Made by a program: the position numbers and the translations under genes | NCBI GenBank assembly: GCA_944322925.1 | Contig: CALUQM010000008.1 | Location: forward strand, 9,073 to 73,072 | DNA length: 64,000 bases | Source of the DNA: an uncultured Bacteroidales bacterium | Lineage (GTDB): Bacteria > Bacteroidota > Bacteroidia > Bacteroidales > UBA932 | Reading direction: 5' to 3' | Shown here: positions 4,629 to 10,453 of the stretch, in pieces | Numbering within the stretch: the first letter of the stretch is position 1 | Layout of the letters: each line of letters starts with the position of its first letter | The notes under the pieces: generated by a model | Database searches by the model: none | What the model was told of the DNA's origin: nothing | Seen by the model: only the letters and a program-made list of their open reading frames with translations

Positions 4629-6827
4629 ATGATCAATTTATTCTATCTTGTACCTTTTGCTGCTGTTGTGGCACTTGGCTTTGCCTGGTATTTCTTCAGG
4701 CAGATGATGAAGGAAAGCGAAGGCTCCGCCACCATGAAAGAGATTGCGCTTTTCGTCAGAAAAGGGGCGATGGCCTATCTCAAGCAGCAGTATAAGGTCG
4801 TGACGATAGTATTCGTCATTCTCGCATTGTTTTTTGCTGTCCTAGCGTACGGTTTCGGTGTGCAGAACTCATGGGTGCCGTTCGCGTTCCTTACCGGCGG
4901 ATTCTTCTCGGGTCTGGCAGGTTTCATAGGAATGAAGACGGCTACGTATGCTTCCGCAAGAACGGCCAATGCCGCCATGCGTTCGCTTAACTCCGGTTTG
5001 AAAATAGCTTTCCGCTCCGGCGCCGTGATGGGACTTACCGTAGTCGGCCTCGGTCTTCTCGACATTTCTCTCTGGTATATAATACTGGATACGTTCACCG
5101 AGGCTGAAGGCCCTCAGAAACTGGTCATGATCACGACTACCATGCTGACTTTCGGTATGGGTGCTTCTACCCAGGCTCTGTTCGCACGTGTCGGCGGCGG
5201 CATATATACGAAGGCTGCCGATGTGGGAGCCGACCTTGTCGGAAAGGTGGAGGCGGGAATACCTGAAGACGACCCGAGGAATCCGGCTACCATTGCCGAC
5301 AATGTAGGTGACAACGTGGGCGACGTGGCAGGAATGGGTGCCGACCTGTATGAATCCTACTGCGGTTCCATCCTCGCTACGACGGCTCTCGGAGCTTCGG
5401 CATTCTATGCTGCCGGCGAAGACATGCAGTTAAGGGCGGTTTTCGCTCCTATGATCATTGCCGCGGTCGGAGTCATCCTTTCCGTAATAGGTATTTTTAC
5501 AGTGAGGACGAAAGAGAATGCCGGAATGAGCCAGCTTCTGAAGTCTCTCGGCTTCGGCACCAACCTCAGTGCAGTGCTCATAGCTGTGGCCACATTCGGT
5601 ATCATGTATGTCCTCGGCATGGAGAACTGGCTCGGAATTTCATTCTCGGTAATAGTGGGCCTCGTTGCAGGTGTCATCATAGGACAGTCTACCGAATATT
5701 ATACCTCGCATTCATACAAGCCTACGAAGAAACTTGCGGAAAGTGCGCAGACAGGACCTGCGACGGTGATAATTTCAGGCGTCGGCCTCGGCATGATATC
5801 CACGGCCATACCGGTGATAACCATTGCCATTGCCATTCTTCTGTCATATCTCTGCGCCATCAATTTCGATTTCGCTAACATACTTTCTGCCGAAAACCTC
5901 GGCCTCGGGCTATACGGAATCGGCATAGCTGCGGTCGGCATGCTTTCAACTCTCGGAATTACCCTTGCCACCGATGCTTACGGACCTATTGCGGACAACG
6001 CCGGCGGCAATGCGCAGATGAGCGAACTCGATCCTGAAGTAAGGCGCAGGACCGATATCCTCGATGCTCTCGGCAATACTACTGCCGCTACGGGCAAGGG
6101 ATTCGCCATCGGTTCGGCAGCCCTGACGGCGCTCGCACTTCTGGCGTCGTATATGGAGGAAATCAAGATAGCTCTCAACCGTGCCGGCGAACAGATTGTC
6201 GGGGTTGCCGGTGAGCTGATGGACGCTGCACAGGCTACGATACCTGATCTGATGGCCCATTATCATGTGGATCTGATGAACCCTATGGTTCTTGTCGGAG
6301 TATTCATCGGAGCCATGATGTCATTCCTGTTCTGCGGCCTTACAATGAATGCCGTAGGAAGGGCTGCACAGAAGATGGTAGAGGAAGTCCGCAGACAGTT
6401 CCGCGAGATCAAGGGCATCCTGACCAGGGAAGCTACTCCGGACTATGCGCGCTGCGTGGAAATTTCGACGAGGGGTGCACAGAGGGAAATGCTGTTCCCT
6501 TCGATAATAGCCATTGTAGTCCCTGTTGTTGTGGGACTGGTTCTCGGTGTCGCAGGCGTGATGGGTCTCCTTATCGGAGGTCTCGGTTCCGGCTTCGTAC
6601 TTGCGATCTTCATGGCCAATTCCGGTGGTGCGTGGGACAATGCCAAGAAGTATGTCGAGGAAGGCAATCTCGGAGGCAAGAATTCGGAATGCCATAAGGC
6701 TACCGTAGTCGGAGATACTGTAGGAGATCCGTTCAAGGATACATCCGGACCGTCCCTCAATATCCTTATCAAGCTTATGAGCATGGTTTCAATAGTAATG
6801 GCCGGCCTTACCGTCCTTATCCATTAG
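4629..6827 (+). CDS. hppA: Membrane-integral cation-translocating pyrophosphatase (K+-dependent, Na+ or Na+/H+ type)
   Basis: GGGIYTKAADVGADLVGKVE, IADNVGDNVGD, GDTVGDPFKDTSGPSLN motifs; GNTTAA (Ala = K+-dependent class). Confidence 0.97.
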   Translation: MINLFYLVPFAAVVALGFAWYFFRQMMKESEGSATMKEIALFVRKGAMAYLKQQYKVVTIVFVILALFFAVLAYGFGVQNSWVPFAFLTGGFFSGLAGFIGMKTATYASARTANAAMRSLNSGLKIAFRSGAVMGLTVVGLGLLDISLWYIILDTFTEAEGPQKLVMITTTMLTFGMGASTQALFARVGGGIYTKAADVGADLVGKVEAGIPEDDPRNPATIADNVGDNVGDVAGMGADLYESYCGSILATTALGASAFYAAGEDMQLRAVFAPMIIAAVGVILSVIGIFTVRTKENAGMSQLLKSLGFGTNLSAVLIAVATFGIMYVLGMENWLGISFSVIVGLVAGVIIGQSTEYYTSHSYKPTKKLAESAQTGPATVIISGVGLGMISTAIPVITIAIAILLSYLCAINFDFANILSAENLGLGLYGIGIAAVGMLSTLGITLATDAYGPIADNAGGNAQMSELDPEVRRRTDILDALGNTTAATGKGFAIGSAALTALALLASYMEEIKIALNRAGEQIVGVAGELMDAAQATIPDLMAHYHVDLMNPMVLVGVFIGAMMSFLFCGLTMNAVGRAAQKMVEEVRRQFREIKGILTREATPDYARCVEISTRGAQREMLFPSIIAIVVPVVVGLVLGVAGVMGLLIGGLGSGFVLAIFMANSGGAWDNAKKYVEEGNLGGKNSECHKATVVGDTVGDPFKDTSGPSLNILIKLMSMVSIVMAGLTVLIH

Positions 6828-6875
6828 AAATCATACTTGCCGGAATGCCGGGAAAATGCCGGGAAAACAACTTTC

Positions 6876-6907
6876 TTTGGAAATTAGTGCGGAAATTCAT
6901 AAATTTG
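6876..6907 (+). promoter_or_regulatory. Bacteroidetes housekeeping promoter TTTG-N20-TAAATTTG for the met leader/operon
   Basis: TTTG 6876-6879, 20-nt spacer, TAAATTTG 6900-6907 match the -33/-7 consensus and spacing. Confidence 0.8.
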
Positions 6908-6915
6908 CAAGAATT

Positions 6916-6966
6916 ATGGATTTCCGCACTTTCATATCGATGATGTCCAAGCGAATGCATCGCTAA
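6916..6966 (+). CDS. Putative Met-rich leader peptide MDFRTFISMMSKRMHR
   Basis: ATG 6916 to TAA 6964-6966, 4 Met in 16 aa including tandem ATGATG; starts just after the promoter and precedes metX. Confidence 0.6.
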   Translation: MDFRTFISMMSKRMHR

Positions 6967-7077
6967 GATGCTATACTGTTTTTTTGCCGTATCGGGCGCG
7001 GGATGCGCAGGCGGCGCAGACCGTAAGAATCCAGATGCCGGAAGGCAAATCTAACAGCAGTCAAACTCAAGGATATC

Positions 7078-8103
7078 ATGATATTGAAACAATACAGACA
7101 TCAGGGAACATTCAATCTTGAAAACGGTGGCCGCATAGACGATCTTACCATCGTATATCATTGCTCTGAAAAACCTTATTCCGGACCTTCGGACGGCCGC
7201 AAGGTCGTATGGATATGCCATGCCTTTACGGCTAATTCCGATCCGCAGGACTGGTGGCCGGGACTCGTGGGCCCCGGCAAGGTAATAGATCCGGACAAAT
7301 ATTTCGTGGCATGCGTGAACATGCTCGGTTCTCCGTACGGCACCACCTCTCCGGCATCAGTCAATCCTGCCACTGGCAGACCGTACTGCTTCGATTTTCC
7401 GAAAATCACAGTCAGGGATATCGTCAATGCGAATATCCTTATCCGCAAACATCTCGGCGTAGAGAAGATAGACCTTATGATCGGAGGATCCATAGGCGGA
7501 TTCCAGGCTTTGGAATGGATGATAATGGAGCCGGAAGTGATGAAAAAATCACTTGTCTCCGCATGCAGCGCAAGGGTGACTCCGTGGGTTACGGCATATA
7601 ACGAATCGCAGAGAATGGCTCTCGAGGCTGATCCGACATTCCGTGAATGCGCGAGTCTCGAAGGAGGAAAGAAGGGTCTTGCATGTGCCCGTGCGATTGC
7701 CCTGATTTCATACAGGAACTATATCTGTTACAATGAAACCCAGTCGGAATCCGATCCGGACAAGATGTTCGCGGACAAGGTGTGTTCGTACCAGCAGTAT
7801 CAGGGAAAGAAACTGATAGACAGGTTCGATGCCTATTCCTACTATTGCCTGACTTATTCTCTGGACAGTCATAATGTAGGGAGAGGGAGAGGAGGCGTCG
7901 AAGCTGCCCTGAAGCGGATCAAGGCCGACACTGTCGTGGTCGGAATCAATACCGACAACCTTTTCCCGGTTGAGGAGCAGAAGTATATGGCCACTCATAT
8001 AGACGGGGCGATTTATGTGGAGATCATTTCCAAGTTCGGGCATGACGGTTTCCTCATAGAAAGCGGTCCTTTGGGAAATATCATACAGCAGCTTTTGGAT
8101 TAA
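7078..8103 (+). CDS. metX: Homoserine O-acetyltransferase
   Basis: VWICHAFTA, WWPGLVGPG, IGGSIGG nucleophile elbow, FGHDGFL; upstream of metY. Confidence 0.93.
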   Translation: MILKQYRHQGTFNLENGGRIDDLTIVYHCSEKPYSGPSDGRKVVWICHAFTANSDPQDWWPGLVGPGKVIDPDKYFVACVNMLGSPYGTTSPASVNPATGRPYCFDFPKITVRDIVNANILIRKHLGVEKIDLMIGGSIGGFQALEWMIMEPEVMKKSLVSACSARVTPWVTAYNESQRMALEADPTFRECASLEGGKKGLACARAIALISYRNYICYNETQSESDPDKMFADKVCSYQQYQGKKLIDRFDAYSYYCLTYSLDSHNVGRGRGGVEAALKRIKADTVVVGINTDNLFPVEEQKYMATHIDGAIYVEIISKFGHDGFLIESGPLGNIIQQLLD

Positions 8104-8115
8104 ATCAGATACGAG

Positions 8116-9396
8116 ATGGAAAACAGGGAATACGGATTTGAAACACTGCAGCTCAGAGCCGGACAGGATATAGATCCCGTGTCCAAGGCCACGGCGGTTC
8201 CGATTTACCAGACTACTGCATACGTTTTCGATGACATGCAGTACGGCGCCGATCTTTTTGCGCTGAAGAAGCCGGGGAACATATATACCCGCATCACGAA
8301 TACTACCAATGACGTGTTCGAAAAACGTATGGCTGCGCTCGAAGGAGGGGTGGCTGCCGTGTCTACGGCATCCGGTACTTCCGCCATTTTTCTTGCTGTC
8401 ACCAATATATGCGGTCCGGGCGACAATATCGTGACATCTCCTTTCCTGTATGGAGGGACTTTCACGATGTTCGAGATCACCTTGAGGGATATGGGCATAG
8501 AAGTGAGATTCGCGGAAAGCGACCGCATGGAAGATATCCGGAAACTTGTCGACGGAAAGACAAAGGCCGTGTATCTCGAAGTCCTCGGCAATCCGGCCTT
8601 CAATGTGCCGGATTTCGAGCCTATCGTGGAAATGGCTCATGAAAAAGGCGTTTGCGTGATAGTGGACAACACATTCGGCTGCGGAGGCTATCTGTTCCGT
8701 CCGTTCGACTGGGGCGCCGACGTATCCGTCCATTCCGCCACGAAGTGGATCTGCGGTCACGGTACGTCTCTTGGCGGGGTAGTCGTGGACAGCGGCAATT
8801 TCGACTGGACGCCGGAGAAATATCCGCTGTTGGCCGCTCCTTCCGAAAGTTATCATGGCCTGATATACAAGGAAGTCTTCGGAAAGGCTGCGTTTGCCGG
8901 AAGGGTGCGTGTGGACGGACTGAGGAATATCGGGGCTTCCGCTTCTCCGTTCAATTCGTTCCTCATGCTCCAGGGACTCGAGACCTTGTCGCTCCGGGTG
9001 GAGAGATGCTGCTCCAATGCCCTTGCTATCGCGGAGTTCCTCGACAGTCATCCGGCCGTGGAAAGCGTGAGCTATACGGGGCTGCCGGACAATCCTTACC
9101 ATGCTCTTGCAATGAAGTATCTCCGGCACGGATTCGGAGCCGTGCTGACATTCAGGGTAAAAGGCGGATTCGATGCGGCTGCCGCCCTTGTAAGCAGGCT
9201 TGAACTTATCCTGCATGTGGGCAGCGTGGGTGATTCCAAATCCCTGATAGTGCATCCGGCATCCACGACGCATTCACAGCTCGGTCCGCAGGAACAGATT
9301 GCAGCGGGAGTGTATCCGAACCTTCTCAGACTGTCCGTAGGGACTGAAAGCGTAGATGACCTGATACGCGATCTGGATCAGGCTCTGCAGGCATAG
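8116..9396 (+). CDS. metY: O-acetylhomoserine aminocarboxypropyltransferase (sulfhydrylase)
   Basis: VPIYQTTAY, GNIYTRITN, IVDNTFG, HSATKWICGHG (PLP Lys) motifs; 426 aa. Confidence 0.92.
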   Translation: MENREYGFETLQLRAGQDIDPVSKATAVPIYQTTAYVFDDMQYGADLFALKKPGNIYTRITNTTNDVFEKRMAALEGGVAAVSTASGTSAIFLAVTNICGPGDNIVTSPFLYGGTFTMFEITLRDMGIEVRFAESDRMEDIRKLVDGKTKAVYLEVLGNPAFNVPDFEPIVEMAHEKGVCVIVDNTFGCGGYLFRPFDWGADVSVHSATKWICGHGTSLGGVVVDSGNFDWTPEKYPLLAAPSESYHGLIYKEVFGKAAFAGRVRVDGLRNIGASASPFNSFLMLQGLETLSLRVERCCSNALAIAEFLDSHPAVESVSYTGLPDNPYHALAMKYLRHGFGAVLTFRVKGGFDAAAALVSRLELILHVGSVGDSKSLIVHPASTTHSQLGPQEQIAAGVYPNLLRLSVGTESVDDLIRDLDQALQA

Positions 9397-9448: not shown

Positions 9449-10453
9449 ATGAAAGTAGCAGTAGTCGGTGCCACCGGACTCGTAGGCACCAGAATGTTGG
9501 AAGTCCTCGCAGAACGCGACTTCCCTGTAACAGAACTCCTCCCCGTAGCCTCTGCGAAGTCTGTCGGCCGCAAGGTGACTTTTCAGGGAAAGGAATGGTC
9601 CGTGGTGAGTGCTGAAGATGCGATTGCAGCCAGACCCGATCTCGCCCTCTTTTCTGCAGGAGCAGGCGCTTCAAGGGAGCTTGCCCCGAAATTCGCCGAG
9701 GTCGGCTGCCGTGTCGTAGACAATTCTTCATGCTGGAGGATGGATCCGACGAAGAAACTCGTAGTTCCAGAAATAAACGGAGATGTCATTACAGCAGAAG
9801 ACTATATCATAGCCAATCCCAACTGTTCGACAATCCAGATGCTCATGCCTCTTGCCCCGCTGCACAGGGCGTTCAGAATCAAGAGGATCGTAGTCTCTAC
9901 GTATCAGTCCGTTACAGGTACGGGATACAAGGCTCTCGACCAGATGGAAGCCGAGCGTGCGGGCAAAAAGTGGGGAGAATATCCTGCAGTCTATCCATAT
10001 CCGATAGACGAGAACATACTTCCGCACATAGATTCCTTCCTCGATTCGGGTTACACCAAGGAAGAGATGAAAATGGTCAACGAGACTCACAAGATTCTCG
10101 ACGAATCCATACTCGTCTCCCCGACAACGGTGCGTGTCCCTGTCAAGGGCGGTCATTCGGAATCCGTTAATGTCGAATTCGAAAATGACTTTACCCTTGA
10201 AGAAGTCCGCAGGCTTATATCTGAAACTCCTGGCTGTGTCCTGCAGGACAATCCTTCGGAAAATATTTATCCGATGCCGCTTTTCGCATGGGGAAAGGAC
10301 GACGTGTTCGTAGGTCGGATCCGCAGGGACCCTTCAGTAAAATACGGCCTCAATCTCTGGTGTGTTGCCGACAACCTTCGCAAGGGTGCGGCTACCAATG
10401 CCGTCCAGATTGCACAATATATGATCGGAAAAGGATTTCTTCCGAAAAACTGA
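9449..10453 (+). CDS. asd: Aspartate-semialdehyde dehydrogenase
   Basis: VAVVGATGLVG, IIANPNCSTIQ (catalytic Cys), VRVPVKGGHS, DNLRKGAATNAVQ. Confidence 0.98.
   Translation: MKVAVVGATGLVGTRMLEVLAERDFPVTELLPVASAKSVGRKVTFQGKEWSVVSAEDAIAARPDLALFSAGAGASRELAPKFAEVGCRVVDNSSCWRMDPTKKLVVPEINGDVITAEDYIIANPNCSTIQMLMPLAPLHRAFRIKRIVVSTYQSVTGTGYKALDQMEAERAGKKWGEYPAVYPYPIDENILPHIDSFLDSGYTKEEMKMVNETHKILDESILVSPTTVRVPVKGGHSESVNVEFENDFTLEEVRRLISETPGCVLQDNPSENIYPMPLFAWGKDDVFVGRIRRDPSVKYGLNLWCVADNLRKGAATNAVQIAQYMIGKGFLPKN

Follow-up and report, generated by a model that had tools for sequence, protein, structure and literature searches.

A conserved metX leader with a methionine-rich mini-ORF, a candidate translational attenuator in uncultured Bacteroidales

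The metX-metY-asd operon of an uncultured gut Bacteroidales bacterium (UBA932) is preceded by a leader of about 170 nucleotides (nt), in which a short open reading frame (ORF), hereafter the mini-ORF, contains a segment complementary to the start region of metX, the first gene of the operon. The leader was analyzed in a stretch of 64,000 nt, called the window throughout (contig CALUQM010000008.1, assembly GCA_944322925.1, forward strand, positions 9,073 to 73,072), and it recurs as a family in front of metX in related genomes. The mini-ORF is almost certainly translated, to judge from the upkeep of its frame among relatives, and the helix that it can form with the metX start is conserved, i.e., the architecture appears well supported by the comparison of leaders. 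Regarding its function, we consider the chances even that the leader is a ribosome-mediated translational attenuator for metX-metY-asd. A preliminary description of this DNA had proposed a leader peptide whose Met codons choose between a terminator and an antiterminator. The general idea, a control element for these three genes built on a leader ORF in a Bacteroidales lineage, is supported by the conserved, frame-preserving mini-ORF. The proposed output is not supported: the hairpin is weak, the U tract is absent in several leaders, and the competing stems are either specific to the window or devoid of covariation.

Methionine genes are known to be controlled by S-adenosylmethionine (SAM) riboswitches, T-boxes, and proteins such as MetJ, MetR, and others, and to our knowledge methionine is not among the amino acids that use leader-peptide transcription attenuation. 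The full-text literature that was searched, with incomplete coverage, returned neither a methionine leader-peptide attenuator nor a description of the metX leader. If the proposal is correct, leader-peptide control would be added to the known ways of regulating methionine genes, filling a gap. Attenuation is a known class of mechanism, and the novelty here lies in the amino acid and phylum concerned, in masking that acts on a start codon with no Shine-Dalgarno site, and in a hairpin module of invariant sequence.

The leader family and its mini-ORF

Relatives of metX were gathered by protein similarity, followed by a DNA pattern scan, a search with a covariance model (R1, 110 positions), and a pattern scan of metagenomes. 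All scans combined, there are at least 37 distinct leaders, every one located directly upstream of metX, and the counts given below refer to these 37 unless another number is stated. The unbiased set, namely the metX loci collected by protein similarity alone, has the leader at 26 of 79 loci. The hosts are Candidatus Cryptobacteroides and other uncultured Bacteroidales genomes from the gut of chickens, ruminants, and horses; in most other Bacteroidales metX lies behind another gene and has no leader. The metagenome scan gave seven true members among the 120 matches listed, all upstream of metX, the remainder being mostly chance. No leader was found in front of any other gene, either by the covariance and pattern scans or among the metagenome matches listed. 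Matches to R1 score from 43 to 124 bits, and the window has exactly one copy, at 6913-7021, with 103 bits. Leaders measure 140-285 nt. The mini-ORF and the two hairpins noticed in the window, gcatc/gatgc and gcgc, are therefore more than chance features, as they recur in 37 distinct homologous leaders.

None of the known RNA families accounts for this element. Rfam at gathering thresholds returned no family, not even a tRNA, in the whole 64-kb window, and a permissive scan of positions 6780-7130, with E-values up to 10, gave no SAM riboswitch, T-box, or amino-acid leader, only chance microRNA-like matches to a palindrome in the promoter that is discussed below. The absence of a SAM riboswitch, on which the preliminary description depended, is thus borne out at both levels of stringency. 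The identities SAM riboswitch, T-box, and Bacteroid-trp (RF01692) were rejected because no covariance model of these matched in either scan. The metX upstream regions of 20 leader-less relatives also lack any Rfam element. Amino-acid-rich leaderless mini-ORFs behind a full promoter pattern were looked for in the window and in the collected loci, where the metX family alone was found, and a lineage-wide "ribulon" (operons co-regulated by ribosome stalling, a term of Canestrari et al.) could not be shown. The covariance model defines a candidate new cis-regulatory RNA family along with a micro-ORF of 16-26 residues that gene callers miss.

The translation of the window's mini-ORF (Table 1) confirms the four Met codons, including one tandem pair, that had been described: the start at 6916 and the internal codons 6940-6942 (Met9), 6943-6945 (Met10), and 6955-6957 (Met14). 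The expectation that such an ORF would be conserved upstream of metX in relatives was borne out, for it is kept as a frame in 37 leaders. Codons 2-5 are variable and never a stop, two different 3-nt insertions (L050, L075) preserve the frame, and every one of the 97 internal ATGs that precede the 3' arm of this frame's hairpin, hairpin 1, shares the reading frame. What appears to be the strongest sign of a translated frame is the placement of the stop codon. The loop of hairpin 1 contains TAA or TGA in 24 leaders, one of which has in addition TAG right after the hairpin; the leaders with a 5-nt loop that lacks a stop all have TAG immediately after hairpin 1 (8/8, with five different loop sequences); and in four leaders with a 7-nt loop the frame continues to a TAA within hairpin 2. 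Synonymous variation is also seen: each of the four TCN codons is used for Ser8 and for Ser11, Lys12 is encoded by either AAG or AAA, and Arg16 by either CGC or CGT.

The 7-nt loop belongs to a clade labeled "uncultured Alistipes sp." (L174, L178, L189, L193, and L198), with a mini-ORF of 26 codons that has five internal Met codons and ends in hairpin 2. The longer loop shifts the frame, and the 3' arm of hairpin 1 therefore reads as further Met-His.

Met codons are enriched, with one to five internal ones in 15-25 codons and at least two in all leaders except L314, and Met14 is invariant. This part of the description of a Met-rich ORF stands; the tandem pair does not, as it is replaced in several lineages. 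Lineages without Met9 and Met10 often have Met at position 12 or 3 (L148, L157, and L107), although these events may not be independent. On this evidence, the idea that the Met codons act as a sensor is plausible but unproven.

The masking helix, the hairpins, and the promoter

Codons 5-11 of the mini-ORF constitute an anti-start segment that pairs with the translation-initiation region of metX, a pairing that the preliminary description had overlooked. In the window, the pairing of 6930-6938 and 6940-6948 with 7080-7089 and 7071-7079 comprises 18 base pairs, one of them G-U, and is interrupted by two single-base bulges; the AUG of metX (7078-7080) is partly paired with the Met9 codon. This duplex has an energy of -19.1 kcal/mol, compared to -7.3 +/- 2.3 kcal/mol for shuffled targets (z-score -5.2), and the helix closes the minimum-free-energy fold of the whole leader (-57.9 kcal/mol, z-score -2.9). 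Nearly all full leaders have this long-range helix in their predicted minimum-free-energy folds.

When all the sequence downstream of hairpin 2 (84-234 nt) was scanned, the best complement of the mini-ORF segment was the metX start region in 33 of 36 leaders, even though the target sequences differ widely. The mean duplex energy is -16.7 kcal/mol for cognate starts and -7.5 +/- 2.7 kcal/mol for 18 leader-less metX loci, including the closest relatives (L001-L007, 88-90% protein identity, all leader-less). The complementarity is not a by-product of the metX coding sequence, because the starts of leader-less relatives lack it. Compensatory pairs are found as well, such as AAGUCC/GGACUU in L014 versus AUGUCC/GGACAU in L008, AUAUCU/AGAUAU in L107, and GCUCCUU/AAGGAGC in L314. 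As a test of co-evolution, the comparison of cognate starts (-16.7 kcal/mol) with the starts of other members (-14.2 kcal/mol) is weak because the anti-start segment is itself conserved, and the informative comparison is the one with leader-less loci.

The spacer between hairpin 2 and metX is 27-177 nt long and variable in sequence between leaders. A total of 2,580 nt of spacer contains 28 GACAU boxes, complementary to the AUGUC of codons 10-11, where 2.8 are expected, an enrichment of about 10-fold. Some leaders have up to four such boxes (for instance L052, L075, and L090), which look like extra docking sites for the anti-start segment. In addition, UAUGGA at the mini-ORF start (6915-6920) can pair with UUCAUA of codons 6-7 (6933-6938; columns 3-8 and 19-24 of alignment A2). 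CAUA is common to this pairing and to that with UAUG of metX; thus, the anti-start segment can mask either start codon.

Two hairpins precede the spacer. The preliminary description had set a gcga/tcgc mini-hairpin (6951-6954 and 6960-6963) against the gcatc/gatgc hairpin (6957-6961 and 6967-6971). Both are present in the window, the former at -2.8 kcal/mol and without covariation in relatives, and the latter, i.e., hairpin 1, at -6.8 kcal/mol (z-score -4.4; about -8.3 kcal/mol in relatives). The sequence of hairpin 1 is invariant across the 37 leaders, save that the window has lost two outer pairs and kept five of seven; in the alignment of these leaders, six of the seven pairs are scored as invariant and the seventh as broken in the window alone. 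Positions 6967-6973 of the window read GATGCTA instead of GATGCAT; the window is the sole member with these outer pairs lost, and it has a long stem of its own (6976-6988 with 7044-7057). This stem, described earlier as ctgtt/aacag plus tttgcc/ggcaaa, is indeed present in the minimum-free-energy fold of the window, where its region folds at -32.7 kcal/mol, but the folds of relatives do not yield it as a conserved pairing. Hairpin 2 occurs in every leader, with compensatory changes at eight of its ten pairs and without a conserved U run. The covariation score of the two hairpins was reached in none of 500 shuffles, on the MAFFT alignment as well as on the model-fitted one, the latter leaning towards the structure.

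These elements invite a comparison with classical transcription attenuation, in which hairpin 1 plus the U tract would act as an intrinsic terminator, and either this hairpin or a competing structure would form, depending on where the ribosome stands on the Met codons. Most leaders indeed have a hairpin followed by a U-rich tract, the mini-ORF ends exactly in hairpin 1, and leader-peptide attenuators are the classical solution for amino-acid operons. The stem is weak, however, and the U run begins 2-3 nt after it; the T7 run reported for the window is there, but in L098, L115, L135, and L314 the tract is rich in C or deviates in some other way. A terminator scan of the window found one site versus 0.7 expected from shuffles. 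A canonical terminator was rejected as a family feature on account of this chance-level scan and the loss of the U tract in several relatives, and the family has no conserved, covarying antiterminator or terminator/antiterminator pair, the alternatives described for the window being either specific to it or invariant. Moreover, a ribosome stalled at Met9 or Met10 leaves hairpin 1 free, so that starvation would terminate transcription and switch the operon off, the wrong sign for a biosynthetic operon, and the conserved pairing of the metX start would be left unexplained. We therefore regard transcription attenuation as very unlikely. Control of translation is indicated instead, because the pairing of codons 5-11 with the metX start is what is conserved.

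The complete promoter described upstream of the leader ORF was confirmed: TTTG, a 20-nt spacer, and the box TAAATTTG fit the -33/-7 consensus of Bacteroidetes quoted in PMC7366714. The distance from the TAnnTTTG box to the ATG of the mini-ORF is 7-10 nt in nearly all leaders, and up to 12 in outlying members. An ATG at 7-10 nt past the -7 box implies a 5' untranslated region (UTR) of a few nt, and for the window transcription is predicted to start at about 6911-6913.

The promoter also has a feature that the preliminary description overlooked, namely an inverted repeat, AGTGCGGAAATTCATAA / TTATGGATTTCCGCACT, straddling the -7 box and the start of the transcript, whose right arm contains the ATG and codons 2-5 of the mini-ORF. 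This palindrome could serve as an operator, or fold into a hairpin that conceals the ATG of the mini-ORF in read-through transcripts. It opens the way to a different reading, in which the mini-ORF is a constitutive unmasking device, any translation opens the metX start, and regulation lies elsewhere, for example in a repressor bound to the palindrome. This reading draws on the extent of the palindrome (16/17 complementary, spanning the -7 box and the transcript start), on its presence at a locus without the leader, on related palindromes at leader-less metX promoters, and on the fact that the tandem Met codons can be lost. The locus in question, L017:2463-2515, is a natural deletion in which the promoter, the palindrome, and the first four codons of the mini-ORF (ATG CAT TTC CGT) are fused in frame to the ATG of metX, the remaining leader being gone. 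Among the leader-less relatives, L001, L002, and weakly L007 have a short 5' UTR partly complementary to their own promoter; in L001:2458-2500 the arms TGGAAATCTATAATTT / AAATTCAGAATTTCCA are 75% complementary and end at the metX ATG, and no such repeat was found in L005. The palindrome is significant in only two clades, that of the window and another with the arms AGGATTTTTCATAA / TTATGRRAAATCCT, its arm spacing and sequence vary between clades, and it is unique in the 64-kb window, where a search with the half-site found no copy upstream of any other gene. As most leaders lack the palindrome and L017 retains it without the leader, it is a separable module, and its absence from most leaders means that it cannot be the main regulator of the family. 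The enrichment in Met codons and the upkeep of a complex leader of 140-285 nt would also go unexplained, and we give little credence to a constitutive device.

A possible translational attenuator and its rivals

An apparently near-leaderless, translated mini-ORF, an internal anti-start segment, and a masked metX start make up the anatomy of translational attenuation. In the proposed mechanism, the mRNA would begin a few nt before the ATG at 6916, with a nearly leaderless ORF of 16 codons. In the naked RNA, 6929-6949 would pair with 7070-7090, and together with hairpins 1 and 2 this helix would close a multi-branched structure that buries the AUG of metX. Bacteroidota largely dispense with Shine-Dalgarno pairing, and in a phylum that does not rely on it a masked start should block initiation. 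With plentiful methionine, the ribosome would traverse the mini-ORF, terminate in the loop of hairpin 1, and leave, after which the masking helix would form and metX would be off; Rho-dependent polarity on metY and asd may follow. When Met-tRNA(Met) is scarce, the ribosome would stall with Met9, Met10, or Met14 in its A site and hold the anti-start segment, the metX start would remain single-stranded, and the operon would be translated. We infer the transcription start, the stalling, that methionine is what is sensed, and which way the operon responds; the choice of methionine follows from the gene context and the Met enrichment, and is to this extent presumptive.

A thermodynamic model is consistent with this direction. 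A ribosome with Met9 or Met10 in the A site covers the whole anti-start segment, and forcing the Met9, Met10, or Met14 footprint to be single-stranded raises the modeled probability that the metX start is unpaired from 0.34 to 0.48-0.55, with a similar rise in most relatives; a ribosome at the stop codon gives 0.27. Because footprints on Met codons raise the accessibility of the start, starvation for Met-tRNA would induce metX, a response of the right sign for biosynthetic genes.

Several observations count against translational attenuation as just described. The predicted opening of the metX start is modest, and a stall at Met14 covers only the 3' half of the anti-start segment plus the 5' arm of hairpin 1. 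Not all leaders have the tandem Met pair, which is replaced by VM (L010, L152), MK (L014), LK (L107), VK (L148), VV (L157), or LL (L314); the pair was lost in at least six lineages, and L314 retains Met14 as its sole internal Met. The RNA pairing is thus a stronger constraint than the Met codons, since it is kept where they are lost, and the invariance of Met14, which lies within hairpin 1, could reflect the hairpin rather than sensing. The codon of Arg13 (6952-6954 in the window) is CGA in every leader examined, when neighboring codons vary synonymously. In Bacteroides thetaiotaomicron, 5' UTRs of less than 10 nt make up only about 3.7% of the total (PMC7366714). Finally, the proposed mechanism gives no account of why GCGA-AUGCAUC...GAUGCAU never varies while hairpin 2 covaries freely, or of the purine-rich loop GGGAU that hairpin 2 has in most leaders. 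The third base of the Arg13 codon is likewise explained by neither the peptide nor hairpin 1.

The invariance of GCGA-AUGCAUC...GAUGCAU suggests selection on the peptide Arg-Met-His-Arg, a sequence-specific partner, or both, and it is the reason why two further readings remain rivals. According to the first one, hairpin 1 with its GCGA flank and hairpin 2 bind SAM, S-adenosylhomocysteine (SAH), methionine, or a protein and thereby stabilize the masking helix, with translation of the mini-ORF being secondary or a second input. The fact that hairpin 1 and the preceding GCGA are fixed in 37 sequences, although the stem could covary, speaks for such a switch or protein-binding site, as do the recurrent GGGAU loop and the resemblance of a multi-branched junction closed by a start-masking helix to a translational OFF riboswitch. 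A possible pseudoknot between this loop and AUCC(C) also fits, with one compensatory case. The pseudoknot partner lies 5-15 nt downstream of the loop (7000-7004 with 7029-7032 in the window) and was seen only in the window's clade; the compensatory case is AGGAU:AUCCU in L010 versus GGGAU:AUCCC in L008. The absence of any Rfam match at E-values up to 10 tells against this reading, and so do the junction strands, which vary in length and sequence except for A(A/U)GCGA, the length range of the spacer, and the outright replacement of the loop and stem of hairpin 2 in L098, L115, L135, L148, L166, and L314. If Met-His-Arg is selected, this by itself fixes six of the seven bases in the 5' arm of hairpin 1, and a purely RNA-based switch could not explain the evidence from the reading frame and the stop codons. 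On balance, we consider a switch or protein-binding site unlikely.

The second reading places the regulation in the nascent peptide, (F)IS(M)(M)S(K/M)RMHR, which would arrest or slow its own ribosome, alone or with a small molecule, the arrested ribosome then remodeling the leader. Here the need to keep Met-His-Arg would be the simplest explanation for the invariance of hairpin 1. The final 10-11 residues are maintained through synonymous changes in the codons of Ser8, Ser11, Lys12, and Arg16; this conserved stretch roughly matches the upper exit tunnel in length, and the C-terminus KRMHR is strongly basic. On the other hand, RMHR is followed by the stop at varying distances (+1, +4, or +11 codons), much of the peptide conservation coincides with RNA pairing, and arrest by the end product would unmask metX, a positive feedback that would be senseless in a biosynthetic operon. 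A resemblance to known arrest peptides is not evident, and no test was aimed at such similarity. A regulatory nascent peptide is, in our view, a long shot.

The two ideas may also be combined into a composite sensor, in which the RMHR nascent peptide with hairpin 1, and the purine-loop hairpin 2, would directly sense SAM, SAH, or methionine, besides or instead of hungry Met codons, and would gate the masking helix. We rate this as quite unlikely; if true, either a riboswitch of a new class would lie within a translated ORF, or this would be the first arrest peptide from bacteria to sense methionine or SAM.

Related systems and the genomic context

Leaderless polycysteine mini-ORFs of mycobacteria have been shown to act by translational attenuation, by means of mutagenesis and proteomics (Canestrari et al., bioRxiv 10.1101/834739). 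Like the metX leader, they are short ORFs placed as the first cistron of an amino-acid operon and contain codons for the pathway's own amino acid; an RNA helix formed with the mini-ORF region covers the ribosome-binding region of the gene that follows, and a stalled ribosome is proposed to prevent this helix, so that control is exerted on translation and not on termination. The metX leader differs by its phylum and amino acid, Bacteroidota and methionine, and by having fewer sensing codons that are not always consecutive. It also masks the start codon with its flanks and not a Shine-Dalgarno site, has two extra conserved hairpins, one of them invariant, and is known from sequence alone, whereas the mycobacterial case is experimental. 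Translational attenuation has likewise been demonstrated by experiment for erm and cat leaders. The leaders of ermC/ermB, cat, and cmlA share with the mechanism proposed for metX a ribosome stalled in a short leader ORF that remodels a start-sequestering hairpin; their trigger is an antibiotic plus a specific nascent peptide and their targets are resistance genes, in contrast to the presumed hungry codon and the biosynthetic genes considered here.

The classical leader-peptide transcription attenuators are those of trp, his, thr, leu, ilv, and pheA. They resemble the metX leader in having a short translated leader, enriched in codons for the end product, before a biosynthetic operon, and differ from it because the metX leader has neither a conserved intrinsic terminator nor a conserved terminator/antiterminator alternative. 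SAM riboswitches (SAM-I to SAM-VI and SAM/SAH) and Met T-boxes control the same kinds of genes (metX/metA and metY), but need no translated ORF. In the same phylum, the Bacteroid-trp motif is a leader peptide with Trp codons. Its entry RF01692 is given in PMC2864571 as a cis-regulatory, non-switch motif of Bacteroidetes. Both are cis-regulatory leaders of amino-acid biosynthesis genes, with a different amino acid and architecture, and the Rfam model has no match in the window.

Among systems that rely on the nascent chain, Arabidopsis CGS1 undergoes a SAM-dependent arrest (PMC3083191). As proposed for metX, a methionine-pathway gene is regulated there during translation elongation; unlike the metX leader, CGS1 is eukaryotic and acts inside the coding region of the enzyme, its SAM-induced arrest leads to mRNA decay, and no sequence relation was seen. 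Arrest peptides of the TnaC and SpeFL type are characterized by a conserved C-terminal peptide at a fixed distance from the arrest or stop codon; in the metX leader the C-terminus ...S(K/M)RMHR is maintained through synonymous changes, and its stop lies at the three distances mentioned above.

Regarding translation control in Bacteroidota, the leader suggests that a start region can be hidden by a sequence that only a translating ribosome removes. Its natural variants supply compensatory mutants, and it might serve as a methionine-responsive part for the engineering of gut Bacteroidales.

The features of the leader and of the operon are collected in Table 1. The product of the metX-like gene has an alpha/beta hydrolase fold (Pfam), and the gene after asd lies on the opposite strand.

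Table 1. Leader elements and operon genes in the window
Feature	Position	Strand	Remarks
-33 promoter element TTTG	6876-6879	+	20 nt upstream of the -7 box
Promoter inverted repeat AGTGCGGAAATTCATAA / TTATGGATTTCCGCACT	6886-6902 / 6914-6930		16/17 complementary (94%)
-7 promoter element TAAATTTG (TAnnTTTG)	6900-6907	+	8 nt before the mini-ORF ATG
Leader ORF (mini-ORF) MDFRTFISMMSKRMHR*	6916-6966	+	16 codons, translation given; stop TAA 6964-6966
Anti-start segment (mini-ORF codons 5-11)	6929-6949	+	Duplex with the metX start region
Hairpin 1, consensus AUGCAUC - 5-nt loop - GAUGCAU	6955-6973	+	Loop contains the mini-ORF stop
Pyrimidine/U-rich tract between hairpins 1 and 2	6972-6985	+	T7 at 6979-6985
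Hairpin 2, outer GCCG/CGGC, inner GCGC/GCGC, loop GGGAU (7000-7004)	6986-7015	+	-13.6 kcal/mol
Variable spacer	7016-7069	+	Holds the 3' halves of the long stem (GGCAAA 7044-7049, AACAG 7053-7057)
metX translation-initiation region	7070-7090	+	Start codon 7078-7080; paired with 6929-6949
metX-like homoserine O-acyltransferase gene	7078-8103	+	MetX models are the top NCBIfam matches, E 3e-92, below equivalog cut-offs
metY (O-acetylhomoserine aminocarboxypropyltransferase / cysteine synthase family)	8116-9396	+	TIGR01326, 607 bits, above cut-off
asd (aspartate-semialdehyde dehydrogenase)	9449-10453	+	NF011456, 420 bits, above cut-off

One assembled public RNA contig, from mixed gut communities, joins the leader (from 6942) to metX. 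The assembled contigs give no information on 5' ends, some of them extend into the promoter sequence, which suggests DNA carry-over or read-through, and RNA contigs were left out of the evidence. An 11-nt unit, ATGCCGGGAAA, is duplicated in tandem at 6845-6866, in the gap between the end of the H+-pyrophosphatase gene (stop at 6827) and the promoter of metX.

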